Shown here in pieces: positions 46,595-62,808 of a DNA stretch of 64,000 bases. Origin of the DNA: Escherichia coli (GTDB taxonomy: Bacteria; Pseudomonadota; Gammaproteobacteria; Enterobacterales; Enterobacteriaceae); the NCBI RefSeq assembly GCF_024223415.1, contig NZ_CP100500.1. The stretch is one strand, 5' to 3'. The notes beneath the pieces are model-generated. The model was not told the origin of the DNA, did no database searches, and was given only the letters and a program-made list of their open reading frames with translations. Made by a program: the position numbers and the translations under genes. How positions within the stretch are numbered: the stretch's first letter is position 1; the number at the start of each line of letters is the position of its first letter.

Positions 46595-47088
46595 TACTCC
46601 TCCTGCTGTAATTCCTCCTCATCATCCGCACCTGCTTCAGTCACCCGCAGGGCTATCTGATCGCGCAGATCATCAATAATGGACTGAACACGGCTCACAG
46701 CGGCAGGCTGCAGACCGCAGTCACGTTCAAGAATATCCGGTAATGTCTCCAGCACCTGCACGACCGCTTTTGCCCAGATGGCAAACTCCCGTCTGACATC
46801 ACTGGCCGGAATGAGTTGTGCCGTTTCCTGTTCGAACTTAAGACGCTCACGTTCAGACTGATACCAGGCTTTGCGCTCATGCGCGTCCATTTCGCCTTCT
46901 GCAACCGGCGGTGGTAATGCCAGAAATGCCGACACAATATCAACCACCCGATAAAGCTTGAGGTTGCTTTCATGCCCCCCTGCAACGGGTAGATTTTGCA
47001 GCCTTGCCGCAGCAGTCTGGCGATGTACACCTGACAGTGCCGCCAGTTGACTGATATTAAGCGTCAGATTTTTTAACTCTCGATCCAT
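46594..47088 (-). CDS. terminase small subunit (Nu1-like)
   Basis: 164 aa; N-terminal HTH (LNISQLAALSGVHRQTAAARL); stop overlaps terminase large start. Confidence 0.85.
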   Translation of the reverse strand: MDRELKNLTLNISQLAALSGVHRQTAAARLQNLPVAGGHESNLKLYRVVDIVSAFLALPPPVAEGEMDAHERKAWYQSERERLKFEQETAQLIPASDVRREFAIWAKAVVQVLETLPDILERDCGLQPAAVSRVQSIIDDLRDQIALRVTEAGADDEEELQQEE

Positions 47089-47409
47089 ACCCGCTCCAGA
47101 ATGTTTTAAACATGCATCTTGCGAACAACTTTAGGCAAACGGTGTTAGTGATGAACAAAAAACAATCAAAATCGACACTACAAAAATAAAACCACTGTAA
47201 TATCAATCTATTACAGTAGTGGTGATGACGAATGAAATTTCAAAAACTAGCCTTTTTCCGCGATGCTCCCGCCCCGTGCCAGCCTCCCCCATTAGGAGGA
47301 CCCACATTTCTTATCAGGTATTCAAAACGCCCACCTCAATGAGGTCGGATCAGATTGATGTGAGAGAACAAATCATGCAAACTATCTAAGCTCATGGTAA
47401 GAAGTAGCA

Positions 47410-47835
47410 GTGACAAGAGGATATTTCCTGATGGAGCAGGCAAATATTTTTCAAGAGATATTCGAACACGTTAGAAGTAATTTATACTTCCCATGGTTTT
47501 ACTCCGAATTAAAACGCCATAATATTGCGCATTATATTTATTATCTGGCTACTGATAATATAAGACTAATTACTCATGATGATAATGTTTTATTAGTTCG
47601 AGGCAGTAGAGGACTTGTGAAAGTTAGCACATCAAAAAAACCAGAGTTAATTAAAGAAGCAGCCAGGAATCTTATATCAGGTAAATCTACATTTCACCAA
47701 TATCGTCTCACTTTAGCAAAAGCAGGTGTTTATCGCTGGATTACAGATATAGATAAAAACATACGGTTTTACTATTCGTTTGATCACGATCTTTTGTACA
47801 TGGAAGATGTTGAAAATAACAGACCATTAATATAG
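47410..47835 (+). CDS. hypothetical protein (moron; possibly YbcV/DUF1398-like, unverified)
   Basis: 141 aa on the strand opposite to late genes, in an AT-rich island between terminase and lysis genes. Confidence 0.5.
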   Translation: MTRGYFLMEQANIFQEIFEHVRSNLYFPWFYSELKRHNIAHYIYYLATDNIRLITHDDNVLLVRGSRGLVKVSTSKKPELIKEAARNLISGKSTFHQYRLTLAKAGVYRWITDIDKNIRFYYSFDHDLLYMEDVENNRPLI

Positions 47836-48152
47836 GAATTAATTAAATCAGCAGTCCGGTTTCATACACCTCTGTACCGGACTAGCTGCATGAAGAGCAA
47901 ACCCGCGAAGCATAAAAGCGGTAAACCCAGGTGTGTATCGTTTTTTATTATTCCCACACACTCGTGCTCCCCGTCGGACTACACTCATGGTTAACGAAGG
48001 AATACAGCGACGATACGGCGCACAGAAATAAATCAGGCATCTATTGACCTCATAAAAACGATGCATTGCCTTGCTATGAGTAATGGTGTCAATTAAAGCT
48101 TTGGCTCTCTCTAGCCCCGGCGAATCTTCAGCGGATTATCCTTGGCCGGTTT

Positions 48153-48617
48153 TTATCTGAGGCATTGCTCTCGAATGTATAGCTGTGCCCCTTCAAGTTG
48201 TTTTTGCATTATTATCAGTCGCTCTCTGAGGGTGAAATAATCCCGTTCAGCGGTGTCTGCCAGTCGGGGGGCGGCTGCATTACCCACGCCGGAGGCGGCG
48301 GTGGCTTCACGCACGGTCTGACAGACTGCTCTGATGCGCAACCGACGACGACCAGCGGCAATATCATCACGAAGAGCATCATTTTCAGCTTTCGCATCAG
48401 CTAATTCCTTCAGGTATTTTGCATCGAGTGCAGTAATATCACGCTGGCGCTGCTGCATGTCAGTAATGGCTGCATTCGCCTGGCTGAGTTTTGTCTTCGC
48501 ATCATCTCTCTGCTCTTTGTAGATGATGGCATTATCGCGGTAATGGGCTATTGCCAGCAACAGCGCACCACTGACCACCAGTAGAATAACAATCACCGCA
48601 TACAGAACCCGTTTCAT
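48153..48617 (-). CDS. i-spanin Rz
   Basis: Start at internal ATG (MKRVLYAVIVILLVV, N-terminal TM); coiled-coil periplasmic domain; track ORF to 48668. Confidence 0.85.
   Translation of the reverse strand: MKRVLYAVIVILLVVSGALLLAIAHYRDNAIIYKEQRDDAKTKLSQANAAITDMQQRQRDITALDAKYLKELADAKAENDALRDDIAAGRRRLRIRAVCQTVREATAASGVGNAAAPRLADTAERDYFTLRERLIIMQKQLEGAQLYIREQCLR
48215..48397 (-). CDS. o-spanin Rz1 (lipoprotein embedded in Rz, +1 frame)
   Basis: 60 aa; lipobox LVVVGC; proline-rich; wholly inside Rz. Confidence 0.85.
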   Translation of the reverse strand: MRKLKMMLFVMILPLVVVGCASEQSVRPCVKPPPPPAWVMQPPPDWQTPLNGIISPSESD

Positions 48618-48618
48618 T

Positions 48619-48837
48619 TCACCACCAGCGTATCTGAGCAATGAAATAACCGGAGGCCATAATCGCAAACACCAGCCAGAAAAGAATGAATTTCCAGGTG
48701 GATAATTTTTCAGCCATAGTTCGAATCTCCCGAATCAGTTTGCTAAAATCAAACACACTTTCTCCTTTGGCTTTTCCGGAGTCAGGAAACACAAAAAACC
48801 CGACTGTTCGCGCAATCGGGGGTCTGCTCTTATTCAC
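48619..48837 (-). CDS. small hypothetical membrane protein between endolysin and Rz
   Basis: ORF up to 72 aa, possibly 32 aa from internal Met; hydrophobic C-terminal helix; stop overlaps Rz start region. Confidence 0.3.
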   Translation of the reverse strand: MNKSRPPIARTVGFFVFPDSGKAKGESVFDFSKLIREIRTMAEKLSTWKFILFWLVFAIMASGYFIAQIRWW

Positions 48838-48914
48838 TACTTCAATTCATTTATGACTAATATCGTGTTATCCACCCGCGTTGGCCAACGTCATTTTTCA
48901 GAGAAATATTCTGC

Positions 48915-49448
48915 TTATCTGTCGATCCCCCAGCACACTAACGCGCTCTCCTGATCACGACGAATAACCTGACCGTAACAGTTATTTGAACGAATGCGGC
49001 AATCACGCCCCCTGTCCTTAATCCACCAGCGAATCGCCTCGCATGCACCTTTACGATCACCAGCATTCAGCCGTTTATAAAACGTCGACGGAAAACACTT
49101 ACCGGGGCCAATGTTATAGGGACAAAATGACGCGATACCCGCTTTTTGTGGTTCGGTCAGTGGTACTTTAATATTGCGCTCCACCCATGCCAGAGCCTTA
49201 TCACGCTCAATAGCGTTAACCTGGTCGCATTTTTCCTTCGACAGTTTCATATTGGGAAAAACGGGTTTTCCATCCACCACTGTGGCACCCCGACAGATGG
49301 TCCATATGCCGGAACCATCACGGTATGCCATTGTGTGGTTACCTTCTTTTTCGTCCAGAAACTGGTCAAGTATCTGAGGAGCAGATGCACCAGCACCAAT
49401 CAGCGCCAGAACGGCAGCCGACAGGCCGTATTTGACTTTTACGTTCAT
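48915..49448 (-). CDS. SAR endolysin (T4-lysozyme-type, R21-like)
   Basis: 177 aa; N-terminal signal-anchor-release segment; catalytic E-x8-D-x5-T (EGNHTMAYRDGSGIWT). Confidence 0.9.
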   Translation of the reverse strand: MNVKVKYGLSAAVLALIGAGASAPQILDQFLDEKEGNHTMAYRDGSGIWTICRGATVVDGKPVFPNMKLSKEKCDQVNAIERDKALAWVERNIKVPLTEPQKAGIASFCPYNIGPGKCFPSTFYKRLNAGDRKGACEAIRWWIKDRGRDCRIRSNNCYGQVIRRDQESALVCWGIDR

Positions 49449-49553
49449 GGATATTTATCAGGATTTATCGATTTCTGAACCCAGGATATGTTTATCTGTC
49501 CCAACCTGTTGAATCAGGCGGAGAACAGGTAAATACAATCAAGAGGATTATTT

Positions 49554-49826
49554 ATGGACAATAACACCATTTCTCTTCAGGAGTTGCTCGACTGCATTTC
49601 CAGGCTTCGGGATGATGTTAATGCCCTTACTGTCGCATTTTCATATCTGGCATTGTCAATTCCCAGGGAACAAATGCAACCAACACTGGCATCGCTCCAG
49701 CTTGAATCACACAGCCCAAAATGGTCCCAGGAACAACAAAATTCCTTCAAGTGGCTGGTGGCATTACTGGAAGATAAATATGCTGTTAAAATTAAAATTC
49801 CGGCGGAGTCTTCAGAGAACCAGTAA
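49554..49826 (+). CDS. hypothetical protein, opposite strand within lysis cassette
   Basis: 90 aa; RBS aagagga upstream; protein-like composition while the antisense frame is low-complexity. Confidence 0.45.
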   Translation: MDNNTISLQELLDCISRLRDDVNALTVAFSYLALSIPREQMQPTLASLQLESHSPKWSQEQQNSFKWLVALLEDKYAVKIKIPAESSENQ

Positions 49827-50136
49827 TTTTTCCCGGTAGCTTTACTTTGTAAGTTATCCACACATTCTGCGCCTCTAAAATTATGGGGTGCTTTTCTGGC
49901 GACAGCTCATTCCCTTCACATAACCCGGCAGCAACATCCAGGAAGACCTGTCTGATTCTCCTTCTGGCTGCTGCCTCATAAAACTCCAGTGCAGCACCTT
50001 CAACACGATCCATAGTGATATCAAGGTCAAAAATCTCACCGTCAAAGCGTTCTTTGTCTTGTAAGGCTAAAGTTACCGCAACTTTATTCTCAAAATTACG
50101 GACTCCTTTCACAACCAGTTCGTAGACTTGAGTCAT
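49792..50136 (-). CDS. hypothetical protein between holin and endolysin (possibly DUF1327/YdfR-like, unverified)
   Basis: 114 aa; starts 5 nt after holin stop on the late-gene strand. Confidence 0.55.
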   Translation of the reverse strand: MTQVYELVVKGVRNFENKVAVTLALQDKERFDGEIFDLDITMDRVEGAALEFYEAAARRRIRQVFLDVAAGLCEGNELSPEKHPIILEAQNVWITYKVKLPGKITGSLKTPPEF

Positions 50137-50140
50137 TGGA

Positions 50141-50356
50141 TTACTCTCCTCTCTCAGCCTTACGCCTGTCTTCTTTAATCTTGAAATAAAGGTTAGTCAG
50201 ATACGTCAGCATGCCAAATACCAGACTACCCAATACACCTATTGCCGCCCACTGTGAGGGCGTGACTTTATCGAGCAACTGTAAAAACCAGTAGCCAGCA
50301 CTGCCTGCAGAGGTGCCGTAGGCGATGCCCGTTGTTAACTTATCCATGGATTTCAT
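50141..50356 (-). CDS. pinholin (phage 21 S-like), dual-start motif
   Basis: Internal start [26 protein letters not shown]... closely matches S21; two Met codons 3 codons apart; track ORF to 50440. Confidence 0.85.
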
Positions 50357-50539
50357 AGCCTCACCTCCGCAGATAACGGATGGTGTACACGGTTTGGTTC
50401 GAAGAAGGAAAAAAGTTACATTAACGTAAGGCCCGAACATCTATTCAAAAAGAAAAACGCCAGCAATTATTCTGGCGTAGCTGAAAGCATCATACAATTA
50501 TCAAATACGAAAATTACAAAATCATTAAAACGCATCACG

Positions 50540-51280
50540 TTACATCATGTCTTTTTCTAAAAAAAATCTTGATGAATATTGATGGGGAGGAACACCAAAA
50601 TATCTTCTGAAAACACTTACAAAATATGACGTGTTTTCATAACCGCATATCTCAGCAACTTTTCCAACAGAATATAAATTGTAGCTTAATAACCTTTCCG
50701 CCATCACCATTCGCTCTTCAAGAATTAACTTACTAAATGATAAGCCTTCGTGCTTTAATTTTCTTTTTAACAGGCTTTCACTCAGATACAGTCTTGAAGA
50801 TATATCACAAAGTCTCCATGCTGCAGATATATCCGTGTGAATAATAGCCTTAACTTTACTTCCTAAACTATTAAGACATCCAAATAAAAAACTTTGCACT
50901 GTTTTCTCTGAAGATAAGATAGCAAGACATGCAAGTGATATTTGATTTCTAACAAAATCCACAGTTCTGCCATCAAAATTCAAGCATGCAATCAAATTCT
51001 TTAACAATGAAAAATCTTCACATTCCACCATCAAGTATGCCGGATAAAACCTTCTTACAGAAAAAGGTGAGAGTGTGTTGTTTTTAAAGAAATCATTAAC
51101 TGTTTTCTCTTCAACATCTACGATCATTACATGATCTATATTTGATGAAAAAAAATCTTTTAAATTGTAATCAATGAGAACAGCACTTCCTTTTTTAAAC
51201 AAAATATCTTCTTTACCAATTCGGACATCAAACGAGTTCAACACCAAAATGATAGAACATATGTATGGCATATTATCCAC
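50540..51280 (-). CDS. AraC-family transcriptional regulator (prophage cargo)
   Basis: 246 aa; AT-rich; C-terminal AraC HTH (GYENTSYFVSVFRRYFGVPPHQY). Confidence 0.8.
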   Translation of the reverse strand: MDNMPYICSIILVLNSFDVRIGKEDILFKKGSAVLIDYNLKDFFSSNIDHVMIVDVEEKTVNDFFKNNTLSPFSVRRFYPAYLMVECEDFSLLKNLIACLNFDGRTVDFVRNQISLACLAILSSEKTVQSFLFGCLNSLGSKVKAIIHTDISAAWRLCDISSRLYLSESLLKRKLKHEGLSFSKLILEERMVMAERLLSYNLYSVGKVAEICGYENTSYFVSVFRRYFGVPPHQYSSRFFLEKDMM

Positions 51281-51622
51281 CTGATATCATTGGGGTTACA
51301 CCAGGTAAGTATAGGTGGAAAATCAATATTCGCCAGTTCAACAATAAGGAAAATCTCATTGCATCACAAGTATAAAATTATGTATTTAACTCACAAAGAC
51401 AAATTATTAAACCAATCTGTTATATTATATATAGCTGCGTGGAATCATAATATTATATATTTTGACTGGCATGTTTACCAACTTTAAGTTGCATCTCAAT
51501 GGTTTCTTCAGCGTAAACAGAGTTTTTATACAAACTGACACTCTGGGTATCATAGTGTAGTTTTTACGATTGTAAATATCCTGCATGCAGGAACTCATCC
51601 TTTTGGATGATATCGCATACAA

Positions 51623-52582
51623 TTAATTTACCATCAGTCTTAGAGCCAGTTCGTCCGGATAGGGATCGAAGTAATTCTGTGTAAGCAAGTAGTCATTAGG
51701 ATACTCACCCAGATAATGCTTCAGCAGAGTCAACGGCGCAAGAAGAGGTAATGTGCCAGAACGATAGTTAAGTATAACCTCGCTCAACTCTTTACGCTGG
51801 CGTGTACTTAAGTAGTTACTAAAATACCCCTGTATATGCATCAGCACATTCGTGTGATTTTTACGTGATGCAGGTTTTCTGAGAATCGCCATCAGCTTAT
51901 CACGATACACCTCAAAGTATGATTCAAGGTCCGCCCACTCGTGTATTGCAGCCACAAATGGTCCCATATCTTTATAGCCTGCCTGACTATGCGCCAACAA
52001 CTGAAGCTTATAACGACTATGAAAAGCTAATAACTCTCTTCTTGATAATTTCTCCTTGTAAAGGTGATTGAGCTCATGCAAAGCAAAAACTCTTTCAACA
52101 AAATTCTCACGAAGCACTGGATCATGTAATCGCCCATCCTCTTCAACCGGTAGCCAGGAAAACTTTTCCATCAAAGTGCTCGTAAATAGTCCCACTCCAT
52201 CTTTACGACCTCGATTACCATTTTCATCATAGACACGCACGCGCTCCATGCCACAGCTGGGAGATTTAGCACAAACCACAAACCCCGATACATCCTTTAA
52301 TTTGTCCATATAAGAACGACTAAACTCTGTCATTCTCTCTGTCACATCCTCATTCTGGTCGTGGCTGAAACACATCCGTATATTTCCTTGCGTCGAGCGC
52401 ACAAGACGTAGAGCAGGACGCGGAACTGGCAGCCCTATAGCCATTTCCGGACATACTGGTCTGAATGTTACCCATTCCACTAATTTGTCCATTAAAAAGT
52501 CAGCTCTTTTGTGACCACCATCAAAACGAACAGCAGAACCGGCCAAACAACCGCTGATTCCAATCACAGGTTTTTTTATCAT
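51623..52582 (-). CDS. DUF523 (TudS-like) / DUF1722 fusion protein
   Basis: 319 aa; N-terminal Cys-containing DUF523-like region (GISGCLAG...CPEM...SPSCG), C-terminal YbgA-like region. Confidence 0.6.
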   Translation of the reverse strand: MIKKPVIGISGCLAGSAVRFDGGHKRADFLMDKLVEWVTFRPVCPEMAIGLPVPRPALRLVRSTQGNIRMCFSHDQNEDVTERMTEFSRSYMDKLKDVSGFVVCAKSPSCGMERVRVYDENGNRGRKDGVGLFTSTLMEKFSWLPVEEDGRLHDPVLRENFVERVFALHELNHLYKEKLSRRELLAFHSRYKLQLLAHSQAGYKDMGPFVAAIHEWADLESYFEVYRDKLMAILRKPASRKNHTNVLMHIQGYFSNYLSTRQRKELSEVILNYRSGTLPLLAPLTLLKHYLGEYPNDYLLTQNYFDPYPDELALRLMVN

Positions 52583-52774
52583 ATCCTCCCCCTTGACTAA
52601 TTCATTAACACATAAACTGTGTAGTGCACGGAATAAATTGCCTTTCTGGCGTCATCACTGACAATTTTTCTGTTATGGACTATTCCTAATATAGTATGAA
52701 AGTTCTTTAAGTGATCGGTCGTAATCATCTATCTTTCATACTTACTCTCAACTATCAAAAGTACAGGATTTATT

Positions 52775-53299
52775 ATGAAGTTATGGCCTGTGTTGACTGG
52801 CATTGCACTCTCTTTCACTCTTATAGCATGTAAGGCCCCGACACCACCTAAAGGTGTGCAGCCGATTACAAATTTTGACGCCAACCGCTACCTCGGAAAA
52901 TGGTATGAAATAGCTCGCCTCGAGAACCGGTTCGAACGTGGTCTGGAACAGGTCAGCGCTACTTATGGAAAACGGAACGACGGAGGGATTCGTGTACTTA
53001 ACCGTGGATACGATCCAACGAAAAATAAATGGAGCGAGAGCGAAGGTAAAGCATACTTTACTGGAGATACTAAAACTGCAGCGTTGAAGGTTTCGTTTTT
53101 TGGCCCCTTCTATGGTGGCTATAATGTAATCAAACTGGATGATGAGTATAAGTATGCTCTTGTCAGTGGTCCGAACAGAGAATACCTATGGATTCTGGCA
53201 AGGACCCCAACTATTCCAGATAAAGTAAAAGCAGACTATGTGCGAACCGCTCAAAAGTTGGGATTCAATGTCAATGAATTATTATGGGTTAAACAATAA
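52775..53299 (+). CDS. bacterial lipocalin (Blc-like outer membrane lipoprotein)
   Basis: 174 aa; lipobox LIAC; strong resemblance to E. coli Blc (NFDANRYLGKWYEIARLENRFERGLE, GKAYFTG, KVSFFGPFYGGYNVI, YLWILARTP); opposite strand to late genes. Confidence 0.85.
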   Translation: MKLWPVLTGIALSFTLIACKAPTPPKGVQPITNFDANRYLGKWYEIARLENRFERGLEQVSATYGKRNDGGIRVLNRGYDPTKNKWSESEGKAYFTGDTKTAALKVSFFGPFYGGYNVIKLDDEYKYALVSGPNREYLWILARTPTIPDKVKADYVRTAQKLGFNVNELLWVKQ

Positions 53300-53327
53300 A
53301 ATCCCTACCCGAAATGATACTTATTAG

Positions 53328-53354
53328 AAAAAAACCAGCCTTTGGGGAGGCTGG
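53328..53354 (-). terminator. putative intrinsic terminator downstream of Q (tR'-like candidate)
   Basis: 6-bp GC stem (ccagcc/ggctgg) with 8-nt loop, followed on the minus strand by a 7-nt U run. Confidence 0.4.
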
Positions 53355-53454
53355 CTAAATCAGAAAACAAGCTGTTATATGATAATAACTACGTTGCGAT
53401 TCCAACATTTAAAATGTTAGACTAATGACAATCAGACAGCAACTTTTCCTTTAA

Positions 53455-53847
53455 TTATTTCGGACAATCAGCATCCATCTCCAATCGGAGATCCAACACC
53501 ATCAGCATGCCCTCCACTACGCCCTCAGCTTTCTGGAGCATCCTGCCAACCCAACAATCAGATCGCCCATGCTTACGTGCAAGCGCCATAAAAGTCATGC
53601 CGCCGACATAATAGTCCACCAATAAATCATGCAAATCGCTGTTGTTTTTTTTCAGGCGAGCCATACATCCACAAATGATCATCGCGTCATCGTCACAACA
53701 TTGCGGGCGAGATTTTACTTTTGAAGGAATTAATCCCTTAAAACCGGCGGCAATGGACGACCAGGTCACATCTTCATGATTATTAGCCGCCCACGCTCCC
53801 CAACGCTCAAGAACCATCTGAATATCACGCATCAACTTTCTCCACAA
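53455..53847 (-). CDS. late-gene antiterminator Q
   Basis: 130 aa; Cys-rich zinc-binding region; position upstream of lysis genes. Confidence 0.75.
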
Positions 53848-53849
53848 AA

Positions 53850-54845
53850 TCAGGCCAGCACACCAATCGCCAGCGCACGATCGATAAAACGAAATATCAG
53901 CTCCAGCTGGGAGCCATACTTCTCTTCGAATGCCACATTATCCGCATGCAGCTCGTCGTGATGCTTTCTGCACAAAGGCAACACAAAGAGGTCATGCGCT
54001 TTTGTCCCCATTCCACCCTGACCGTGGCCTATCAGGTGGTGGGGATCATCAGCAGGTTTTCCACAACATGCGCACGGCTGCGTCTTAACCCATCGCGTGT
54101 ACTTTTCATTAACCCAGCGGCGACGTTTTGGGCGTAACATAAAAGAGTCCGGCGACTCCGGATCCACTTTCAGCGCCAACACCTTTTTCGCTTTATCCTG
54201 GATGATGCTGGTGGCAGGAACCGAAGGCACCAGGTCACTTTCCCGGGTGACAGACGGCACAACAGGCTTCGGTAATCTCAGTGCCTTACGGGCTGCACTT
54301 TCCGGTAAGGCATCCGCCAGATCATTACGAATCAGCCACCAGCACAGTTCCGGCATTGTCACAACGTGACTGTCATCAAAACCGAGATCCCGACGCACAA
54401 CAGACAACACCCAGCGGGCACAGTTATCCGTTGCCATTGATTCCAGCCGTTCCGTGAACTGATCGCGCAGTTGGTTATCGCAGTGCCAGCACAGACGGAT
54501 TGCGCCCGGCGCGTGTCGCATTGTGGTCATGTTCTCGCTGTGCCAGTCGGAATGAGGCCACTGGCAGCCTTTTTCACGAAGTAACCAGCTTTCAAGACAT
54601 TCCACGCCACCAGCACGACGGATCACTGCCTCATTGCGGAACACGGCCCGAACGGCAGGATCATCCGCCAGCGGTTGTGATGCAGCCGGAACGGCACCAC
54701 TGGCAAAAGATGAATAACGTTCCGGCTCAGGCTCCAGCAGGACACGCCCCTGCATAAACAGGGGCATCAGCTCTGAACCTGGCCTGAACAATACGATCCC
54801 CATACGCGGGGCAATTTCAGGGGTCAGTAGTGCTCTCACGGTCAC
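53850..54845 (-). CDS. DUF968-like nin-region protein with C-terminal zinc/HNH-like motifs
   Basis: 331 aa; C-terminal [14 protein letters not shown]...CRKHHDELH. Confidence 0.6.
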
Positions 54846-54846
54846 C

Positions 54847-55656
54847 TCAATGAACGGTATCGAGCAGCTTTAACAGCTCAGGGAATCGGGATTCGAAGAA
54901 ATGCGGCTGCGTCTCGCGCGGATTTGCGGGACTGGTGATGTTCTTGCCGAACATGCAGCCTTTCGCTGTCAGCGACCAGAATTTTTTGATGTTGTTAATC
55001 GCGGTACGGCTGTATCGTTCGCGTTGTTCAACGATCCCCAGCTTCGCCATCTGGTGATATGCCTGATTAGCCGTCAGGCGGATACCATACTGCTTCAGCA
55101 GTGCACTCAGCGACAGCGTCGGGCGGCTTGAGCCATCAGGCGCGTCAGCAGGTGCATCAATGGCATAGCGCGGTGCCAGATTCGGTAAGCCAACAGCCTC
55201 CTGGAGTTTCTGACAGGCCCCAAGCACAGATGAGTTAGACAGATTTAACTCCCGGCGCATAAAGTCCAGCAGAATCACGCCAGCCTGCATCTTGTCAGCA
55301 GCCTGTCCGGATAACTTTTCCGGCGCGCTGGTTACCATATCGAAAGTACGGATCACCTTCAGATGGAATGACGGGCTGATCCACATTGCATAGGCATACA
55401 CCAGTTCCTTACAGACATACGTTCCCCGTTCATTTCCCCCATGAATCACGCTCACCGGGTCAACACCCAAATTCTGGGTGTTGGTTAATTCATGAACAAG
55501 CTCAACAGTTTGTTGGCTGGAAAGAAACTTTCCTGGCTCCTTGGTTCTGGCATTTGCACCAGATGCTACTGCTGCGCGATGCAGATCGTTCAGGCTGTAA
55601 CGCCCATAAGCATCACGACGAACTTCAATACCATCAATGACCATCAGATTATTCAT
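54847..55656 (-). CDS. KilA-N domain protein
   Basis: 269 aa; N-terminal KilA-N-like region (IDGIEVRRDAYGRYSLNDLHRA). Confidence 0.6.
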   Translation of the reverse strand: MNNLMVIDGIEVRRDAYGRYSLNDLHRAAVASGANARTKEPGKFLSSQQTVELVHELTNTQNLGVDPVSVIHGGNERGTYVCKELVYAYAMWISPSFHLKVIRTFDMVTSAPEKLSGQAADKMQAGVILLDFMRRELNLSNSSVLGACQKLQEAVGLPNLAPRYAIDAPADAPDGSSRPTLSLSALLKQYGIRLTANQAYHQMAKLGIVEQRERYSRTAINNIKKFWSLTAKGCMFGKNITSPANPRETQPHFFESRFPELLKLLDTVH

Positions 55657-55675
55657 ACTTCGTTTCTCCTCTTAA

Positions 55676-56065
55676 TCAGGCAGCTGCACCCGCCGTTTTC
55701 TCGTACTTACTGATAGTGATCTCGACCTTCCCTTCCGGGATAACCGGTCCCCACTCCACCAGCATTCTTTTCACCTGACTGTCGTCTTCCCACACCCCCG
55801 CGTGGGTCAGGGCGTCAAACAGCGCCTTGTTATAGTTGTCCAGATCGCGGATCCTGTTATCCGGAGGAAACAACACGATCTCCACTGAAGCAGGTGCCGA
55901 CGTTGGTTTCGGCAGACGACGTAACTGCTCAACTATTGCTGCGCACGCCGCGCTCTGGAATTTTCGCCCCGCCGCGCTTATCAGGCTCTTACCTGCAAAC
56001 GCCCCTTTGTTAGGGTGTCGCCAGTAAGTGTTCACGCTGGGCGGGAAAGGCAGGATAAGCTTCAT
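55676..56065 (-). CDS. rusA: Holliday junction resolvase RusA
   Basis: 129 aa; RusA signature (PPSVNTYWRH...RDLDNYNKALFDALTHAGVWEDDSQV). Confidence 0.9.
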   Translation of the reverse strand: MKLILPFPPSVNTYWRHPNKGAFAGKSLISAAGRKFQSAACAAIVEQLRRLPKPTSAPASVEIVLFPPDNRIRDLDNYNKALFDALTHAGVWEDDSQVKRMLVEWGPVIPEGKVEITISKYEKTAGAAA

Positions 56066-56388
56066 ACTTTCAGGCCCCTCTCATGTAACCAGTGAGTTGC
56101 ACGCAGCCTGGCGTTTTCCTCACCGGCAAGCAGTGCGCGGATAATCCCGGCTGCCTCGCTGTCGTCGTCCTTCACTGTGGTATGAAGCGTGATACCCCGG
56201 GCCACGCCACGCTTTATCGTGATGACGCCTTTTTTCTCCAGTGCGCGAAGATGCTCCACCGCTGCATTCACCGAACGGTATCCCAGCATGGCTGCCACCT
56301 CCTGATTGGTTGGCGGGAAACCACGTTCTTTCTGATAAGAAATCAGCATATCCAGCACCTGCTGCTGGCATTGAGTTAACGTCGTCAT
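56062..56388 (-). CDS. LexA-type winged-helix DNA-binding protein
   Basis: 108 aa; LexA N-terminal-like HTH (LTQCQQQVLDMLISYQKERGFPPTNQEVAAMLGYRSVNAA); ATGA overlaps with neighbours. Confidence 0.6.
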   Translation of the reverse strand: MTTLTQCQQQVLDMLISYQKERGFPPTNQEVAAMLGYRSVNAAVEHLRALEKKGVITIKRGVARGITLHTTVKDDDSEAAGIIRALLAGEENARLRATHWLHERGLKV

Positions 56389-57038
56389 GCCGCCATCTCC
56401 CTGACCAGTTTTTCTGCCTGCTGGCGAACCTGCGCCAGAAAGGCCTCACCACATGCCTCAAGTTCATCGCGCCCGATGTAGCTGATTGCCGGTCCCTTCC
56501 AGGTCTTGTCGAAAACAGCAATAGCACCAGCGAAGAAAGCGCCTGTCGGCACCTGCTTCTCATCCTTCGGGATAAACCAGGCAGGCAGTTCAAAACCAAT
56601 ACGCCCGCGAATAAAAGCAATATGATCTACATCTTCCGGCCACCACACTTCGCTGGTGGCAGCTTTGATCAGGAAAACATAGCGCCCGCCTTTATCACGC
56701 ATGGCACTGGCATGCTTCATGATGTAACGCATGCCGGTGATGTATTGCCCCTCATGCTGACTGGCGCGGCTGTATGGGGGATTACCAAAGGCAGCACCTT
56801 TAAGCTCCGCAAGGCGTTCTGACCAGTCATGCGCCAGCGCGTTGTCTTCCGCCGTGTAATACGCAGCACATTTGGCGTTATCACCGTCAGTGAACAGATC
56901 CAGAACAAACGGGCCAAACAGGGTGTTAATTCCCCAGAAAATGTTGTCCGGCGTGCGCCACTGATCGCCCACTTCCTTCAGTTCATGGGCTGGTTTGTTC
57001 CGCAGTTCCACCAGCGCCTGGCAATATTTATTACTCAT
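56385..57038 (-). CDS. phage DNA N6-adenine methyltransferase (Dam-like, orphan)
   Basis: Start at internal ATG overlapping upstream stop; NPPY catalytic motif (AAFGNPPYS); no adjacent endonuclease. Confidence 0.75.
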   Translation of the reverse strand: MSNKYCQALVELRNKPAHELKEVGDQWRTPDNIFWGINTLFGPFVLDLFTDGDNAKCAAYYTAEDNALAHDWSERLAELKGAAFGNPPYSRASQHEGQYITGMRYIMKHASAMRDKGGRYVFLIKAATSEVWWPEDVDHIAFIRGRIGFELPAWFIPKDEKQVPTGAFFAGAIAVFDKTWKGPAISYIGRDELEACGEAFLAQVRQQAEKLVREMAA

Positions 57039-57532
57039 TAAGCCCCCACGTAATTCCCTGAGAGATACCACTCTTCACCTGATGCAGCCCGCTTACTGCT
57101 TTTCCGTAAACACCGTTCACGACGCGCCAGAAAATTGTTTCGTTCTGGCAGGGAGTGGCTTTCACGGAATGCCGCCATCCACACCGTTGCAGCACGACGG
57201 TATAAGCCCCTGGACTCCAGTTCTTCCGCCTGGCGGGTCAGGCACAAAATCACCCGCGGGTCGTTAGTGCCGACATAGAAATTGCGCACAGGTCTGGTTT
57301 CACGAACTGGTTGTGGTTCCGGATCCTGCGCTCTCTCAGTCAGGCGCGGGAAATGTCTGTGTGTATCTCCTTCACAACGGTGAGCCACACGCCCACTCTG
57401 ACGTAACTTGCTTGCTGACTGCAGAACGCGCTGCCGTGAGTAACCTGCAAAAGCATCCGCAATGTCTCCGGAAGTACAGCCCGGATGGGCTTCAATGAAT
57501 TTCTGAACGTCATTCAAAAGACTCATGCTCAC
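57038..57532 (-). CDS. hypothetical protein
   Basis: 164 aa; translationally coupled between replication gene and methyltransferase. Confidence 0.5.
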   Translation of the reverse strand: MSMSLLNDVQKFIEAHPGCTSGDIADAFAGYSRQRVLQSASKLRQSGRVAHRCEGDTHRHFPRLTERAQDPEPQPVRETRPVRNFYVGTNDPRVILCLTRQAEELESRGLYRRAATVWMAAFRESHSLPERNNFLARRERCLRKSSKRAASGEEWYLSGNYVGA

Positions 57533-58470
57533 CCCCTGAATCCTGCCGGGATCTGGCTGTAGTCCACATTGTCGTAACTGGCTTTGAAGTACGGGTCTTC
57601 GCGTTTTTCTGTGTACGTGCTGACGGACGGCGATAAGCGCAGGGAAAGCTCATCCCATTTTTCCCGCAGCTTCGACGGGCTGAGCACGTTACGGCACCAG
57701 AACGGATCGCGGCTGACGCGGCTGTAAATCTCGCAGATTTGTTTGTGAGTACGACCATCCTGCACACACATCAGGCGAATTTCGTTTGCCCAGGCTGTCC
57801 AGTTCGGTTCTTTGGGACGAACCACCTCGCCGTCACATTCGGCAGCCTGCTCGTACAGGGCGATGATTTTTTTCCAGAGCCACTGTGCGCAGGTCAAATC
57901 ATCCTGCGTCCCCCACTGGCGTTTTTTAGGGCTGAATACAACCGCATCAGGATGGCGAGTTAAAAAATCCTGTTCAGCCGTCTGCGTGTCCGGTTGCGAA
58001 GAGTCCGGACGAGAAGGTTTTTTATCTGACGGATCATGTTTTGATTTTACTGACGGATCCCCGCCAGATTCTGACGGGTGAAAACCCGCTTTTTTGCCAG
58101 ATTTCGACGCATCAAATTTTGACGGGTCAGATTTTGATGCGTCAGATTTTGACGGGTCAGAATCTGACAGTTGAGAAAATGCCGCTGCCTGAAGCTTCGC
58201 AACGTTAAGCTGATAAACATTCGACGCATTGCGGTTACCCTGGCGACGCGCCTTACGCGTTAACCAGCCTTCTGCTTCCAGCCGTGCGATAGCCGTTCTG
58301 ACGGTACTCATCCCCGCGCCAATCTGGCGGGCAATGGTTTCAATCGATGGCCAGCACACACCTTCGTCATTACTGAAATCAGCCAGGCGGGCCATAATTG
58401 CCACGCTGGATAATTTCATGCCTGACGCTGCGCAACCATCCCATACATAGCCGGTTAATTTAGTGCTCAT
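57529..58470 (-). CDS. phage replication initiator (HTH N-terminal domain, O-like)
   Basis: 313 aa; N-terminal replication-protein HTH; central low-complexity SKSD repeat coinciding with DNA iterons. Confidence 0.75.
   Translation of the reverse strand: MSTKLTGYVWDGCAASGMKLSSVAIMARLADFSNDEGVCWPSIETIARQIGAGMSTVRTAIARLEAEGWLTRKARRQGNRNASNVYQLNVAKLQAAAFSQLSDSDPSKSDASKSDPSKFDASKSGKKAGFHPSESGGDPSVKSKHDPSDKKPSRPDSSQPDTQTAEQDFLTRHPDAVVFSPKKRQWGTQDDLTCAQWLWKKIIALYEQAAECDGEVVRPKEPNWTAWANEIRLMCVQDGRTHKQICEIYSRVSRDPFWCRNVLSPSKLREKWDELSLRLSPSVSTYTEKREDPYFKASYDNVDYSQIPAGFRG
58020..58170 (-). repeat. iteron-like direct repeats (candidate replication origin) inside the replication gene
   Basis: Recurring (C/T)TGACGG(A/G)TC with ~15-bp period, e.g. 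tcagattttgacgggtcagattttgatgcgtcagattttgacgggtcag. Confidence 0.5.
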
Positions 58471-58479
58471 GACCGACCT

Positions 58480-58818
58480 CTATTTCCCTGAATTTACGAC
58501 GAAACTGTTCGAGCGGACTGAAGCACTCATGCTCATAGCCTTCGCGGAGGTAGATAACCCGTTGTGTTTCCGGTTCCCAACGAATGACTCTGACGGGCAC
58601 TCCGTAGTGATCTTTGAACCAGCGGTTAACTTGTCGCAAAGGACTGTCTCCTTCTGCCGGTTGAAATCCCCCACAGCCCACTCTGCAAAGCTGTGGGTTA
58701 CAATTTCCCTGTCACCTGGTACATTCACTGCATAGCAATATTCCACCTTCGCTTTTCCACCCGGTACAGGAAGCGCAATCAGTTGCGAGCGACGGTAGTG
58801 TGTTGTTAAACTGTTCAT
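58480..58818 (-). CDS. hypothetical protein (frame uncertain)
   Basis: 112-aa ORF with ATGA start/stop overlap to upstream gene, ending 10 nt before replication gene start; an alternative 73-aa ORF (58460..58681) overlaps in another frame. Confidence 0.35.
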
Positions 58819-59486
58819 GCGTTAGTTTCTCCACAACCAGAAGCAATCGACGCCACGACGCCCGGAGCTGCACACTCGCGGGCGTCATTACTTTCTGAAA
58901 TGCAAAAGATTTTGTAGACCAGTGCTGCATGCTCCTGCAGCTTCGAAATTGAGAGATACAGCTCGTCGTTAATTGCTGTCTTCTCATGCGGTTCCACTAC
59001 ACCGTCTTCGATTGCTGAACGAATCTGTTTTGAATAACTGCCGATCTGTTCAATGACTTCCAGCAGACGCTGGTTAATATCGGCGTTGTCCACATCCTCG
59101 ACGTCAGGAAGAGACACAAAGACGCCATTTGCAGACTGCGCCACAGCGTCAGCAATGAAGTGAGTTCCACCAGCACGTTGCAAAATCATTGCCCATCCCA
59201 GCGGGAAAATCTGATCGCCATCGGCACGAAGGCGGTTAAATAATGCGTTCTCTGTTACATCCAGCCAGTCAGCTGCTTCAGCGTAACCACCCGGCAACTT
59301 TGCGATAGTTTTTCTGACAGCTTTCACGTACCACTCAGGCTGTTTTTCTACTTTCCAGTGATGCTTACCCACGGTTAGCCTCATCGTTCTGTGGTTTCTG
59401 TTAATCGATTTATCCATTAGATTTTTCATAAAGCTCAGGTTTAAATGGCAACCGTCCGCAAGTTCTATATGCAGCTTCTGCTGCAC
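58815..59486 (-). CDS. putative CII-like early regulatory protein
   Basis: ORF directly downstream of cro-like gene; true start probably an internal Met at ~59384-59429 because the longest ORF overlaps cro. Confidence 0.45.
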
Positions 59487-59610
59487 GTCCTTTTGGAATT
59501 AACTGGCCCGGACGGTTTCGCCACTGATAAACGGCTTCAGTTGTTATGCCGAAAAAAGCAGCAACTTTCTCAATACTGCCGAAGTAGCTTTCGATATCGT
59601 CAGTTGTCAT
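59410..59610 (-). CDS. Cro-like HTH regulator
   Basis: 66 aa; divergent from repressor gene; HTH-like segment (VAAFFGITTEAVYQWRNR). Confidence 0.75.
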   Translation of the reverse strand: MTTDDIESYFGSIEKVAAFFGITTEAVYQWRNRPGQLIPKGRAAEAAYRTCGRLPFKPELYEKSNG

Positions 59611-59707
59611 ACGCCCTCCAAACTAAGTTTTGTTAGATGCTAATTACAAATCTATCTTTGGTCAATAAAAACTAAGATTACTTAGCAATTAAAGAAATGG
59701 TGCTCCT
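59611..59707. promoter_or_regulatory. divergent cro/cI control region with two operator-like 14-bp palindromes
   Basis: CTAAGttttGTTAG at 59623-59636 and perfect CTAAGattaCTTAG at 59672-59685 between divergent starts. Confidence 0.55.
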
Positions 59708-60334
59708 ATGGAAACGGTTGGTCAGCGTATAAAAGCTCTGAGAAGAGTTACCAGAACGTCCCAGAAAGAATTGGGTAAATTTTGTGGAGTAAGCGACGTT
59801 GCTGTGGGGTACTGGGAGAAAGACATCAATACCCCTGGTGGGGAGGCACTTTCGAAATTAGCGAAGTTCTTCAATACGTCAATAGATTACATTCTTTATG
59901 GTGCTGAGTTTGAAGGCAAACTCGTCACAAACATGCGCAGAGTTCCTGTAATATCGTGGGTTCAGGCTGGGCAGTTTACTGAGTGCAGGGCAGCAGAAGT
60001 GTTTAGTGAAGTGGACAAGTGGGTAGATACATCATTAAAGGTTGGTGATAACTCATTTGCATTAGAGGTTAAAGGTGACTCCATGACTAACCCTAATGGC
60101 CTCCCAACAATACCAGAAGGCGCAACAGTGATTGTAGATCCAGATGCAGAACCTCGTCATGGAAAAATAGTCATCGCTCGACTTGATGGAACAAACGAAG
60201 CTACAGTAAAAAAATTAGTCATCGATGGCCCTCAAAAGTTTTTAGTGCCATTAAATCCTCGGTATCCCAACATCCCTATCAATGGTAATTGCCTTATCAT
60301 TGGTGTAGTCAAAGGAGTTCAATACGAACTCTAA
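59708..60334 (+). CDS. CI-type repressor (HTH + S24 LexA-like peptidase domain)
   Basis: 208 aa; N-terminal HTH (SQKELGKFCGVSDVAVGYWE); C-terminal catalytic Ser/Lys context (VKGDSMTNP ... KKLV). Confidence 0.9.
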   Translation: METVGQRIKALRRVTRTSQKELGKFCGVSDVAVGYWEKDINTPGGEALSKLAKFFNTSIDYILYGAEFEGKLVTNMRRVPVISWVQAGQFTECRAAEVFSEVDKWVDTSLKVGDNSFALEVKGDSMTNPNGLPTIPEGATVIVDPDAEPRHGKIVIARLDGTNEATVKKLVIDGPQKFLVPLNPRYPNIPINGNCLIIGVVKGVQYEL

Positions 60335-60413
60335 GGCCTCTCTTCTCTAACTAAGGCACCGAACTAAGAAAAGTTTGGTGTTTTCTCTTGCCATAATAAC
60401 TAAGTTAAGTTAG
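60331..60413. promoter_or_regulatory. cluster of CTAAG operator-like motifs just downstream of cI
   Basis: CTAAG at 60331, 60351, 60364 and palindrome CTAAGttaaGTTAG at 60400-60413, same half-site as the cro/cI region. Confidence 0.4.
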
Positions 60414-60564
60414 ATTTTATATCAAAGATAACGAACAGGCAGGACGCCCACGAAGTAGCCGCCTGGGGCATATAAAGTCCAGGATGATTCGTTAGCAACA
60501 AAAAAGCGCCCTACAGGACGCTTAGCTCTTTAACAATCTGGGTATCATCCAACCAATGCAAGAT

Positions 60565-61086
60565 TTAAGGAATCCAAGGCGAATTCAGATCTCGCCCCAA
60601 CTCACGTAATGATCTTGGTCGTTCGTACATCGGATTTTTTTCCATAAGAAATTTATTTTCACAGTGAAGGCAACGGCTTGTAAGAAAATGAGAAGTTTTA
60701 CCTACTGGAAGCGGATGAAGTATCGATTTTATATTTTTGGAATAACAAAGTGGGCACAGATGCACAGTTATTTCTTTTCCACTCACAATTTCATTTTTAG
60801 AGTAAACAAAAGCACCAGAGTCAAGCTGATCAAGGACATATCCTTCTACCTTGGCACAAAAATCTTCAAACTCTGCAATTTTTGCTTTGAGATGCATCAC
60901 CTCTTCATCACGAAGGCGGATCGCATCGCCAAGAGAGAAGCATTCTGCCTGAAGCGTGATTAGTTTGTTCTGGAGTTCAATGGTTGCAGCTTTAACTTCT
61001 GCATCCGTTTTCGCGTCATTAATAACCTTAGCAAGACCGGCAGTCTCCTTTATAGCGGCCATAGCCGCAGACAGTTCAGCTATCAC
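60565..61086 (-). CDS. hypothetical coiled-coil / zinc-ribbon protein beside the immunity region
   Basis: 173 aa; N-terminal coiled-coil-like region; C-terminal CPLC-x24-CLHC; convergent with cI; antisense frame is low-complexity. Confidence 0.6.
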   Translation of the reverse strand: MIAELSAAMAAIKETAGLAKVINDAKTDAEVKAATIELQNKLITLQAECFSLGDAIRLRDEEVMHLKAKIAEFEDFCAKVEGYVLDQLDSGAFVYSKNEIVSGKEITVHLCPLCYSKNIKSILHPLPVGKTSHFLTSRCLHCENKFLMEKNPMYERPRSLRELGRDLNSPWIP

Positions 61087-61373
61087 GTTGAATACTCAGC
61101 TAGTTGTTGGGGATATCCAGATTAACCAAATCCTTGTTGTTGGGGAATAACTAGGTCCACCTCGCCTGATGTGGCTAAAAGCAGGCACATAACAGCTAAG
61201 TATTTTCAACCAGAGAGAATCCTTAGCGTTGTGGTGAATGCGGCTCAGCGCACGCGGGTTAAGGTTGAGGCTGACAGTCGACCTTCTGTGGATACCCACC
61301 CGCCTGGTGTGCAACCTTCGCCAGGCACCGGGAGGCACCCGGCACCACAACTTTATGCTGTGTGTAGTCCTGG

Positions 61374-61418
61374 CGGTACCAGCTTGTACCCTTGCTTCCG
61401 GCTGGTACCGTCCTTTTT
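61374..61418 (+). terminator. strong stem-loop plus U run in the leftward-operon leader
   Basis: Perfect 10-bp stem cggtaccagc / gctggtaccg with 17-nt loop, then tccTTTTT. Confidence 0.5.
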
Positions 61419-61555
61419 ACAAAACAGAGAAGAGCATCACCGGACGACGGGCTCATAACCCAATCCATCCGGGCGGCAGTCACCGCAGGTGTTCTTCTCT
61501 GTTTTGTGGAGAAACTAACCGACCTTGCAGGGTCGATATGATGAGGAGCAGCAAA

Positions 61556-61918
61556 ATGGCTAGCGAACGCAGTACTGATGTGCAGGCATTTATCGGGGAG
61601 CTGGACGGCGGCGTATTTGAAACCAAAATCGGCGCAGTTCTCAGTGAAGTCGCTTCCGGTGTGATGAACACGAAAACCAAAGGTAAGGTCTCGCTCAACC
61701 TAGAAATCGAACCGTTTGATGAGAACCGAGTGAAAATCAAACACAAACTCTCATATGTTCGCCCGACTAACCGCGGGAAAATTTCCGAAGAAGACACCAC
61801 CGAAACGCCGATGTATGTCAATCGCGGTGGTCGCCTGACTATTCTGCAGGAAGACCAGGGACAATTACTGACTCTTGCCGGTGAGCCTGACGGAAAACTC
61901 CGCGCAGCAGGTCGTTAA
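61556..61918 (+). CDS. hypothetical early protein (YfdP-like, unverified)
   Basis: 121 aa from ATG with RBS gaggag; the upstream in-frame extension to 61238 is Arg-rich and judged non-coding. Confidence 0.55.
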   Translation: MASERSTDVQAFIGELDGGVFETKIGAVLSEVASGVMNTKTKGKVSLNLEIEPFDENRVKIKHKLSYVRPTNRGKISEEDTTETPMYVNRGGRLTILQEDQGQLLTLAGEPDGKLRAAGR

Positions 61919-61983
61919 TATCGTTCTTAATAAACTGATTATTTATCTCATCACTGAATATCTTTATATAGTGAGGACTTATT

Positions 61984-62808
61984 ATGTCTCAGAACTTAGA
62001 CGCAACCGCAATTAATCAAATCCATGCCCTTATTTCTGCTCAGGGTGTTAATGAAATTATCAGTAAGATTGGTGCCGATGCTGTGGCATTGCCTGAGAAT
62101 TTCCGCATTCATGATCTGGAAAAACTTAATTTAAATCGCTTCCGTTTCCGTGGTGCGCTTTCCACTGCCAGCATCGATGACTTTACCCGTTATTCTAAAG
62201 ATCTTGCAGATGAAGGCACCCGCTGCTTTATCGATGCCGATAATATGCGAGCCGTCAGTGTGCTTAACCTGGGTACTATTGATGAACCAGGTCACGCAGA
62301 TAACACCGCCACTCTCAAACTGAAAAAGACAGCACCGTTCTCTGCCCTGTTGTCTGTTAACGGCGAGCGTAACTCCCAGAAGTCACTGGCAGAATGGATT
62401 GAAGACTGGGCCGACTACCTTGTGGGCTTTGATGCTAATGGTGACGCCATTCAGGCAACCAAAGCGGCTGCGGCGATCCGTAAAATCACAATTGAAGCGA
62501 ACCAGACCGCTGATTTTGAAGATAATGACTTCAGCGGCAAACGCTCCCTGATGGAGTCTGTCGAAGCGAAGACCAAAGACATTATGCCAGTGGCATTTGA
62601 ATTTAAATGCGTTCCGTTTGAAGGTCTGAAAGAACGTCCGTTTAAATTACGCCTCAGCATTATCACTGGCGATCGTCCTGTACTGGTACTACGCATTATT
62701 CAGCTGGAAGCAGTGCAGGAGGAAATGGCTAACGAATTTCGTGATCTGCTTGTTGAGAAGTTCAAAGACAGCAAAGTAGAAACCTTTATTGGTACTTTCA
62801 CCGCCTGA
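61984..62808 (+). CDS. DUF2303-family protein (YfdQ-like)
   Basis: 274 aa; resembles CPS-53 prophage YfdQ by length and composition; followed by yfdR-like gene. Confidence 0.6.

Follow-up and report, generated by a model that had tools for sequence, protein, structure and literature searches.

The DNA analysed here is a 64,000-nucleotide stretch of an Escherichia coli genome (the window), which carries a lambdoid prophage with a lipocalin gene, labelled blc2 by us, just past its antiterminator gene Q. The prophage occupies the DLP12 site, with appY (99% identical to K-12 AppY) and nfrB/nfrA to its left; the open reading frames between appY and nfrB/nfrA fit ompT and envY, which we assume from the K-12 gene order. 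The features used in the following are:

50141..50356, minus strand: holin essD, with which the lysis genes begin after the cargo block (annotation and PHROG)
50540..51271, minus strand: AraC-family regulator of the YdeO/AppY type, third cargo gene, 31.6% GC
51623..52582, minus strand: rudS, a 319-residue TudS-DUF1722 fusion annotated as 'YbgA family', with Cys12, Cys44 and Cys110 present
52650..52774, plus strand: presumed blc2 promoter and 5' UTR, 125 bp conserved between phage alleles
52677-52700, plus strand: motif GACTATTCCTAATATAGTATGAA, at -98 to -75, in register with chromosomal relatives
52737-52742, plus strand: candidate -10 element CATACT
52775..53299, plus strand: blc2, lipocalin gene, intact open reading frame of 525 bp and 174 residues
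52829-52831, plus strand: codon of Cys19, at which the signal peptide and lipobox L-I-A-C end (read from the sequence)
53333..53356, minus strand: tR'-like intrinsic terminator, a 9-bp stem followed by T7, ~50 bp past the candidate pR' (scan and sequence)
53413..53441, minus strand: candidate pR', with -35 TTGCTG, a 17-bp spacer and -10 TAACAT (read from the sequence)
53455-53832, minus strand: antiterminator Q, 125 residues, PHROG 79 (E = 3e-51), 88% identical to QuuD of DLP12

Q and the late genes lie on the minus strand and blc2 on the plus strand, which bears out the claim of an earlier note on this DNA that the lipocalin gene is antisense to late transcription and directly follows Q; the holin, lysozyme/endolysin and tail or structural genes come after Q on the minus strand. 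The stop codons of blc2 and Q are 155 bp apart. An arrangement of pR' and tR' between Q and the late genes is usual in lambdoid phages, and the candidate pR' begins just past the Q stop codon; its -35 hexamer, like the stem-loop of tR', is invariant in the 6 diverged phage and prophage copies aligned, while the promoter itself is absent from the output of a stricter consensus scan of 52400-53900. A terminator scan of the same interval gave only weak sites apart from tR' and no plus-strand terminator between blc2 and Q, and the tR' hairpin has no U tract when read on the plus strand. Since tR' ends 34 bp from the blc2 stop codon, a Q-modified polymerase would cross blc2 in the antisense direction before reaching rudS, araC and the holin gene. 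Scans for Rfam families in 47000-56000 (E ≤ 0.1) and for tRNAs in 47000-64000 returned nothing.

Between the preceding stop and the blc2 ATG there is no other start codon, and a Shine-Dalgarno sequence, AGGA, lies 6 nt 5' of the ATG. In the 125 bp preceding the ATG the two main phage alleles diverge by ~4%, compared to ~17% in the 77 bp further left and a dS of 0.19 in the coding sequence; the low divergence relative to the flanking 77 bp indicates constraint on a promoter or leader. We infer that the promoter of blc2 lies in this stretch. No strong plus-strand sigma-70 promoter was found 5' of blc2 in a consensus scan of 52400-53900. The candidate -10 element aligns with a conserved, sigmaS-like CTACACTT(T/A)A of chromosomal relatives, which resembles the sigmaS-type -10 consensus, and the 23-nt motif at 52677-52700 shares 18 of its 23 positions with the chromosomal GAATATTCTCAATATACTACGAA, which lies at the same distance to the ATG. 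Taken over the whole upstream region, the similarity between phage and chromosomal loci is marginal, the observed score being reached in 18 of 500 shuffles, and homology of the promoter regions is suggestive only.

The encoded lipoprotein

The blc2 reading frame is identical to the RefSeq CDS WP_000780581.1, annotated as a 'lipocalin family protein'; a literature search returned no paper that mentions WP_000780581. Its product aligns over residues 1-174 with positions 1-174 of the 176 in the NCBIfam profile NF007786, 'outer membrane lipoprotein Blc', scoring 316.1 bits against a curated cut-off of 267 bits; it also matches Pfam Lipocalin_2 (PF08212, E = 8e-44) and the solved Blc structures 3MBT, 1QWD and 2ACO (E = 1e-68 to 1e-69). 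Compared to K-12 Blc, 104 of the 174 residues are identical (60%) in a gap-free alignment. These matches confirm that the gene encodes a lipocalin of the Blc family, and because of the 60% identity to three solved Blc structures the fold of Blc2 is certain.

The predicted N-terminus reads MKLWPVLTGIALSFTLIA-C19-KAPTPP. Lipoproteins are sorted to the outer membrane if they have no Asp at position +2; Blc2 has Lys there, and Cys19 is invariant among all 26 Enterobacterales lipocalin sequences compared. Blc2 thus has the features of a lipoprotein signal and of outer-membrane sorting, as far as these can be read from a sequence. The lipocalin core (the G-x-W motif and the conserved Arg) is present, together with the pocket residues V74 and L141; positions 74 and 141 are ligand contacts in Blc-derived proteins (PMC8601599). 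E. coli Blc (b4149) resembles Blc2 in length, lipoprotein signal, lipocalin motifs and pocket positions; the two differ in their loci, which are frdD-ampC-blc-gdx for the E. coli gene and Q-rudS for the phage gene, and in GC content (53% vs 44%). Physiologically, even Blc is poorly characterised. For its ligands, the title of Campanacci et al. 2006, as cited in PMC8601599, names a binding preference for lysophospholipids.

Two Blc lineages in Enterobacterales and the link to rudS

To place blc2 among its relatives, 80 loci from species-representative genomes were classified by tblastn with reference neighbours. Among those of Enterobacterales two types appear, the labels of which are ours. In type 1, which includes E. 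coli Blc, the frdD-(ampC)-blc-gdx synteny is kept. In type 2 the lipocalin gene is often divergent from a gene for a MerR-family regulator with full-length resemblance to MlrA, an arrangement seen in Enterobacter, Leclercia, Buttiauxella, Kosakonia, Cedecea and Scandinavium. Behind this regulator lies either a transthyretin-like gene with a 319-residue TudS-DUF1722 fusion, or an operon of SnoaL-like, SDR, amine-oxidase, DUF1365, CFA-synthase-like and DUF2878 genes. In about half of the type-2 loci neither MerR nor rudS lies near the lipocalin gene, and the neighbours found there instead (acetyltransferase, copD, arnT, porin, radD) vary from locus to locus without a shared theme.

In 99 of 100 bootstraps of an alignment of mature proteins, a single clade unites the phage protein with all type-2 proteins, and Blc2 does not group with the frdD-linked Blc proteins; it shares 75-85% of its residues with the 16 closest type-2 proteins, compared to 60-67% with type 1. 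The closest non-phage proteins, those of Cedecea, Scandinavium, Enterobacter, Leclercia, Buttiauxella and Kosakonia, among them the lipocalins of the MerR- and RudS-linked loci, are 78-82% identical to Blc2 over the full length. Neither is blc2 embedded in the frdD-(ampC)-blc-gdx synteny, its neighbours being Q and rudS. Both types occur together in Buttiauxella agrestis and Kosakonia pseudosacchari, where they are ~64% identical to each other. At the level of sequence, these comparisons show that blc2 belongs to a second Enterobacterales Blc lineage, one that E. coli chromosomes lack. The earlier description of the protein as related to Blc but diverged thus holds as far as the family is concerned; the gene is not a diverged copy of E. 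coli blc, however, but a member of a separate paralogous lineage.

The two lineages are consistently separated at only eight positions (H51N and C131S are examples), while 56 positions are invariant across both, including G41, W43, R143 and the pocket positions 74 and 141. The phage protein itself has only 7 specific substitutions at otherwise conserved positions. Since the core motifs and pocket positions are invariant and so few positions separate the lineages, the biochemistry of Blc2 is probably that of Blc.

The gene next to blc2, rudS, lies 192 bp from it, divergent and on the late strand, and the rudS product shares 93% of its residues with gp66 of phage 1H12. That protein is the 'RudS_vir' synthesised and tested by Jamontas et al. 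2024 (PMC11417400), and we take the 'YbgA family' gene of the window to be, on the strength of its sequence, RudS, a tRNA 4-thiouridine desulfidase. RudS enzymes strip 4-thiouridine from tRNA, and their overexpression lessens the growth delay induced by UVA; E. coli is described as being without RudS, and rudS genes as frequent in light-responsive operons (PMC11417400). In E. cloacae, rudS adjoins a MerR regulator, and the pair is treated as probably light-inducible (PMC11417400); the same locus is a type-2 lipocalin locus in our survey (L021). In this survey rudS lies within 8 kb of the lipocalin gene in 11 of 23 type-2 loci compared to 0 of 10 type-1 loci (Fisher p = 0.007), and the phage RudS is 74% identical to that of one of the loci (L006). 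By sequence comparison blc2 shares two features of the MerR-linked type-2 loci: its closest relatives are the lipocalins of those loci, and rudS lies on its divergent side. A literature search returned no link of a lipocalin with YbgA, DUF1722 or DUF1365.

The MerR-lipocalin-RudS loci resemble the phage block in that the lipocalin gene is divergent from the rudS side and the upstream motif is in register. In the phage, on the other hand, the MerR and the transthyretin-like gene are absent, an AraC regulator has been gained and the GC content is ~14 points lower; none of the phage or prophage copies of the block yielded a MerR in a tblastn search. blc2 and rudS have 44.0% and 43.5% GC (GC3 ~40%), while the chromosomal relatives sampled have mostly 57-59% (GC3 68-75%), with 51% in Buttiauxella. 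One chromosomal locus, in Kluyvera genomosp. 1 (L022), has the layout of the phage, with rudS and the lipocalin gene directly divergent and no regulator between them; the pair is flanked by a polygalacturonase-like gene (with yejK further out) and radD. A complete lipocalin-MerR-transthyretin-RudS unit was also found between IS26 copies on an E. coli plasmid. When the cargo block was compared by sensitive blastn with 19 chromosomal type-2 loci, homology was confined to the two coding regions, at 66-74%. With similarity at this level and in coding regions only, no donor or deletion junction can be named, and either the capture is old or its donor is unsampled. blc2 and rudS both appear to originate from MerR-controlled stress loci, and a link of blc2 to light or photo-oxidative stress is by association only.

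The association is made up of the biology of RudS and of three observations on other bacterial lipocalin genes. A photolyase gene adjoins the lipocalin gene in one Bacteroidota locus (L081) and lies within ~3.5 kb of it in another locus (L060). In Chryseobacterium lacus a light-induced lipocalin lies beside crt genes, and in actinobacterial crt clusters a lipocalin gene lies beside phr.

Distribution, selection and comparable phage genes

Of 5426 complete E. coli genomes, 1142 carry an 861-bp segment comprising the gene and its intergenic regions, at 90-100% identity, nearly always on the chromosome and in up to four copies per genome; 1044 genomes have a place covering at least 80% of blc2, and the reading frame is intact in nearly all copies. 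Blc2 is encoded by 12 cultured lambdoid coliphages, 11 of which (the Lambda_* and 1H12 records) are annotated with 'Lipocalin Blc', and by ~45 IMG/VR contigs (91-100% identity); it forms a PHROG family of its own, 2809. Mathieu et al. 2020 describe blc as a moron in >50% of the lambda phages of infant-gut E. coli (PMC6969025). As a lambda moron blc2 is thus already known, being present in about a fifth of complete E. coli genomes, annotated and published, and the suggestion that a phage-borne lipocalin is unusual cargo does not stand. The best-described counterpart is gp65 of phage 1H12, annotated 'Lipocalin Blc', which is the same gene in the same orientation; at 97% amino-acid identity, with 5 amino-acid differences, it is an allelic variant. 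Its neighbours also match the window: the Q-like gp64, RudS (gp66), the AraC-like gp67 and the holin gp68. The lineage of the lipocalin and its link to rudS are not discussed by Mathieu et al. (PMC6969025), and the searchable literature returned nothing on a phage blc in a lineage absent from the E. coli chromosome, on its coupling to rudS or on an origin in MerR loci.

With K-12 blc as query, chromosomal blc was found adjoining ampC and gdx/sugE in 5424 of the 5426 genomes; counting it by a distant DNA search was dropped, the sequence being too diverged to be found reliably in this way. blc2 and chromosomal blc are ~66% identical in DNA. With a chromosomal blc in all but two genomes, lysogens own two lipocalins and misassembly is excluded; every blc2 copy examined has phage neighbours, so that the earlier view of the gene as prophage cargo is upheld.

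The gene travels as part of a block. The order AraC(-), RudS(-), Blc(+), Q(-) was found in 28 of 28 loci long enough to display it, in a survey of phages, prophages and viral contigs, and the shorter loci are consistent with it. Amino-acid identity to the window is 83-100% for AraC, 93-100% for RudS, 95-100% for Q and 97-100% for intact, full-length Blc copies (91% for one truncated copy, L129). The prophage backbones around the block vary, being either a Qin-like ydfU-rem-hokD region or a lambda-like rusA-ninE region; the occurrence of the same block on differing backbones indicates that it moves with its Q allele. The GC content of the cargo block is 31-46%, compared to 51-57% in the neighbouring early region, and in DLP12 the slot between Q and the holin carries nmpC instead. 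blc2 is in this sense a dispensable insert of deviant base composition between phage modules, as is characteristic of a moron.

The two main phage alleles of blc2 differ at 20 synonymous and 5 non-synonymous sites, corresponding to a dN/dS of 0.065 at the dS given above; estimates between phage alleles are 0.065-0.07 for blc2 and 0.10 for rudS. blc2 is under strong purifying selection.

Two genes of DLP12 offer a parallel in layout. nmpC (the lc porin gene) is an antisense outer-membrane gene between quuD and essD, at the same site and next to a Q of the same family, and borD is an antisense outer-membrane gene after the lysis genes; bor and lc are expressed in lysogens. The proteins of nmpC and borD are unrelated to Blc2, and the DNA after quuD in DLP12 is not homologous to that after the Q of the window. 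Another mobile Blc gene in E. coli is the plasmid blc beside blaCMY-2 (in the Citrobacter-derived ampC-blc-sugE), which differs from blc2 (~62% protein and 67.5% DNA identity) and moves with insertion sequences on plasmids, not with phages. This blaCMY-2-linked gene, annotated blc1 on a Salmonella resistance plasmid, is presumably of the ampC-linked type 1.

A proposed role in the lysogen and its alternatives

Taking these observations together, we think it reasonably probable that blc2 is a moron captured with rudS, expressed in the lysogen as a lipid-binding lipoprotein of the outer membrane and switched off after induction. We propose that a phage captured blc2 and rudS jointly from a MerR-controlled stress locus, with loss of the regulator, and that the block of Q, pR'/tR', blc2, rudS and araC would then have spread as a unit through the lambdoid phages of E. 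coli. As a lysogenic-conversion gene, blc2 would be transcribed rightward in the lysogen from its own conserved upstream region, probably by a sigmaS-type promoter with a weak -35. The product would be exported by the Sec and Lol pathways as an outer-membrane lipoprotein with a lipocalin barrel, and, like E. coli Blc in vitro, may bind fatty acids or lysophospholipids, here at the inner face of the outer membrane; in this way it could add to the maintenance of envelope lipids in stationary-phase or photo-oxidative stress. Upon induction, Q-modified polymerase would proceed past tR', antisense over blc2 and in sense through rudS, araC and the lysis genes. As this read-through would be antisense to blc2 and sense to rudS, blc2 would be turned off while rudS is turned on.

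The selected function might lie elsewhere, for instance in superinfection exclusion or surface remodelling, with Blc2 masking a receptor or altering the envelope towards phages or serum factors and lipid binding being incidental. The phage outer-membrane lipoproteins Cor, Llp and Bor can be offered as parallels; blc2 would be an outer-membrane lipoprotein gene antisense in the late region, comparable to borD and nmpC in DLP12; lambda morons are mostly membrane proteins (Mathieu et al., PMC6969025); and the purifying selection shows the protein to be of consequence for the phage or the lysogen. However, the only hits of Blc2 in Pfam, PHROGs and NCBIfam are lipocalins, with no likeness to known exclusion proteins, and its closeness to its chromosomal relatives (75-85% identity, with few phage-specific substitutions) argues against neofunctionalisation. 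We consider this explanation unlikely.

It is also quite unlikely, in our view, that selection has acted on rudS or the AraC regulator as cargo and that blc2 has hitch-hiked with no benefit of its own. The constant linkage of blc2 to rudS would fit such a passenger, as would the fact that the activity of RudS and its effect under UVA upon overexpression have been demonstrated (PMC11417400). A neutral passenger would nonetheless have decayed at the synonymous divergence of the two alleles, and what is found instead is a low dN/dS, a reading frame intact in almost all copies and a conserved upstream region.

Could the transcription of blc2, and not its protein, be what counts? It would then act as an insulator, colliding in the lysogen with leaky read-through from pR' and so guarding against untimely expression of the holin; in a variant, it might also continue in the antisense direction into pR' and Q. 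The short distance between the end of blc2 and tR', the lack of a plus-strand terminator before Q in the scanned interval and the presence of an antisense gene, nmpC, in the equivalent slot of DLP12 all agree with such a role, which leaves the strong purifying selection on the protein sequence unexplained; we regard it as very improbable. That blc2 is an assembly artefact or a duplicated chromosomal blc is practically inconceivable, given the separate and much diverged chromosomal gene and the flanking of blc2 by Q and rudS in finished genomes as well as in the genomes of cultured phages. None of these four alternatives is directly supported, and the passenger and artefact explanations are contradicted by selection and distribution.

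Within the proposed moron function, blc2 and rudS might, as a tentative reading that we hold to be possible but doubtful, be a two-gene remnant of a light or photo-oxidative-stress regulon that has been freed of its MerR-type regulator. If this is true, the prophage would give E. coli a trait that is missing from its chromosome: the role of Blc2 would be to protect outer-membrane lipids in the lysogen or to repair them, while upon UV induction RudS would be made from the late transcript, and with tRNA lacking the UVA-crosslinkable 4-thiouridine, phage proteins would still be translated. The opposite orientations of blc2 and rudS would then constitute a built-in switch between the lysogenic and the lytic state.

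What is called blc in coliphages is, in summary, not a copy of the host gene but a second lipocalin lineage that is otherwise missing from E. coli, and it is always coupled to rudS, the phage form of which is the sole phage RudS tested so far. For two widespread prophage genes this offers a hypothesis of function, by which they would shield envelope lipids and tRNA from light or oxidative stress, and the blc2 region may serve as a natural system in which to study convergent transcription just behind a Q-dependent terminator.

Genes of the cargo block around blc2

The lipocalin gene blc2 lies in a prophage cargo block with the order Q, blc2, rudS and araC, whose other members are considered here together with appY:

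51623-52582, minus strand: rudS, annotated as 'YbgA family', adjoining the lipocalin gene; TudS-DUF1722 architecture
50540-51271, minus strand: AraC-family regulator gene of YdeO/AppY type (PHROG 1450), between rudS and the holin gene
22269-23018: appY itself, in the same prophage
52597-52728, minus strand: ORF of 43 aa in the blc2-rudS intergenic region

Judged by its sequence, the product of 51623-52582 is RudS, a tRNA 4-thiouridine desulfidase, with 93% identity to RudS_vir of phage 1H12. RudS_vir is an experimentally tested protein, and RudS is absent from the E. coli chromosome (PMC11417400). With rudS encoded on the late strand, its expression in the lytic cycle is to be expected from Q read-through.

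The araC gene is very AT-rich (31.6% GC) and is the most variable part of the cargo block (83-100% identity); its product is 31% identical to AppY. With appY itself present, the prophage thus carries two regulators of the YdeO/AppY-type family. The annotation of phage IdasGreatGrand treats the 43-aa ORF as a CDS; we consider that it is probably not a gene, because it overlaps the conserved region upstream of blc2 and has no family match.

Type-2 lipocalins and other Blc-like lipocalins elsewhere

The type-2 lipocalins, the second Enterobacterales Blc lineage to which blc2 belongs, are also found in other settings. On the E. coli plasmid pMB07152_contig_2 (comparison locus L090, 1585-8573), a complete chromosomal-type unit comprising the lipocalin, a MerR regulator, the transthyretin-like UraH, RudS and an AAA ATPase is flanked by IS26 copies; this is a second, phage-independent route of type-2 lipocalin and RudS into E. 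coli. A metagenome locus (L006) belongs here as well.

In Cedecea (L005), Scandinavium (L007), a MAG (L019) and Klebsiella sp. (L024), the type-2 lipocalin stands beside an operon encoding SnoaL-like, SDR, amine-oxidase, DUF1365, CFA-synthase-like and DUF2878 proteins; this operon may resemble furan or modified-fatty-acid gene clusters belonging to singlet-oxygen regulons. A Blc-like lipocalin gene in each of two Bacteroidota genomes has a photolyase homologue close by (36-37% identity to E. coli Phr), either directly upstream of it (L081, 6584-7849) or at a distance of ~3.5 kb (L060, 1410-2660).

The Q-holin slot and its chromosomal setting

The chromosomal flank in the window contains the following genes:

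1306-8536 and 13521-18717, plus strand: VgrG-Rhs pair and nfrB/nfrA

The former is a type VI secretion cargo pair (Rhs YD-repeat, 1606 aa) and the latter are the phage N4 receptor genes; from these genes, the insertion site of the prophage is that of DLP12. Among E. coli genomes, strain GDSC2BY4G (L001) matches the cargo block best. Its lysis region carries an IS2 insertion (L001, 6696-7924) that is absent from the window, so the window stems from another strain, one whose lysis cassette is intact.

K-12 DLP12 (L140, 1457-5114) has a Q of the same family, 88% identical to that in the window; the DNA after Q shows no homology between the two. In DLP12 the Q-holin slot is occupied by the porin gene nmpC, which is disrupted by IS5 and antisense, as blc2 is in the window. 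The slot seems to have repeatedly accepted antisense outer-membrane cargo.
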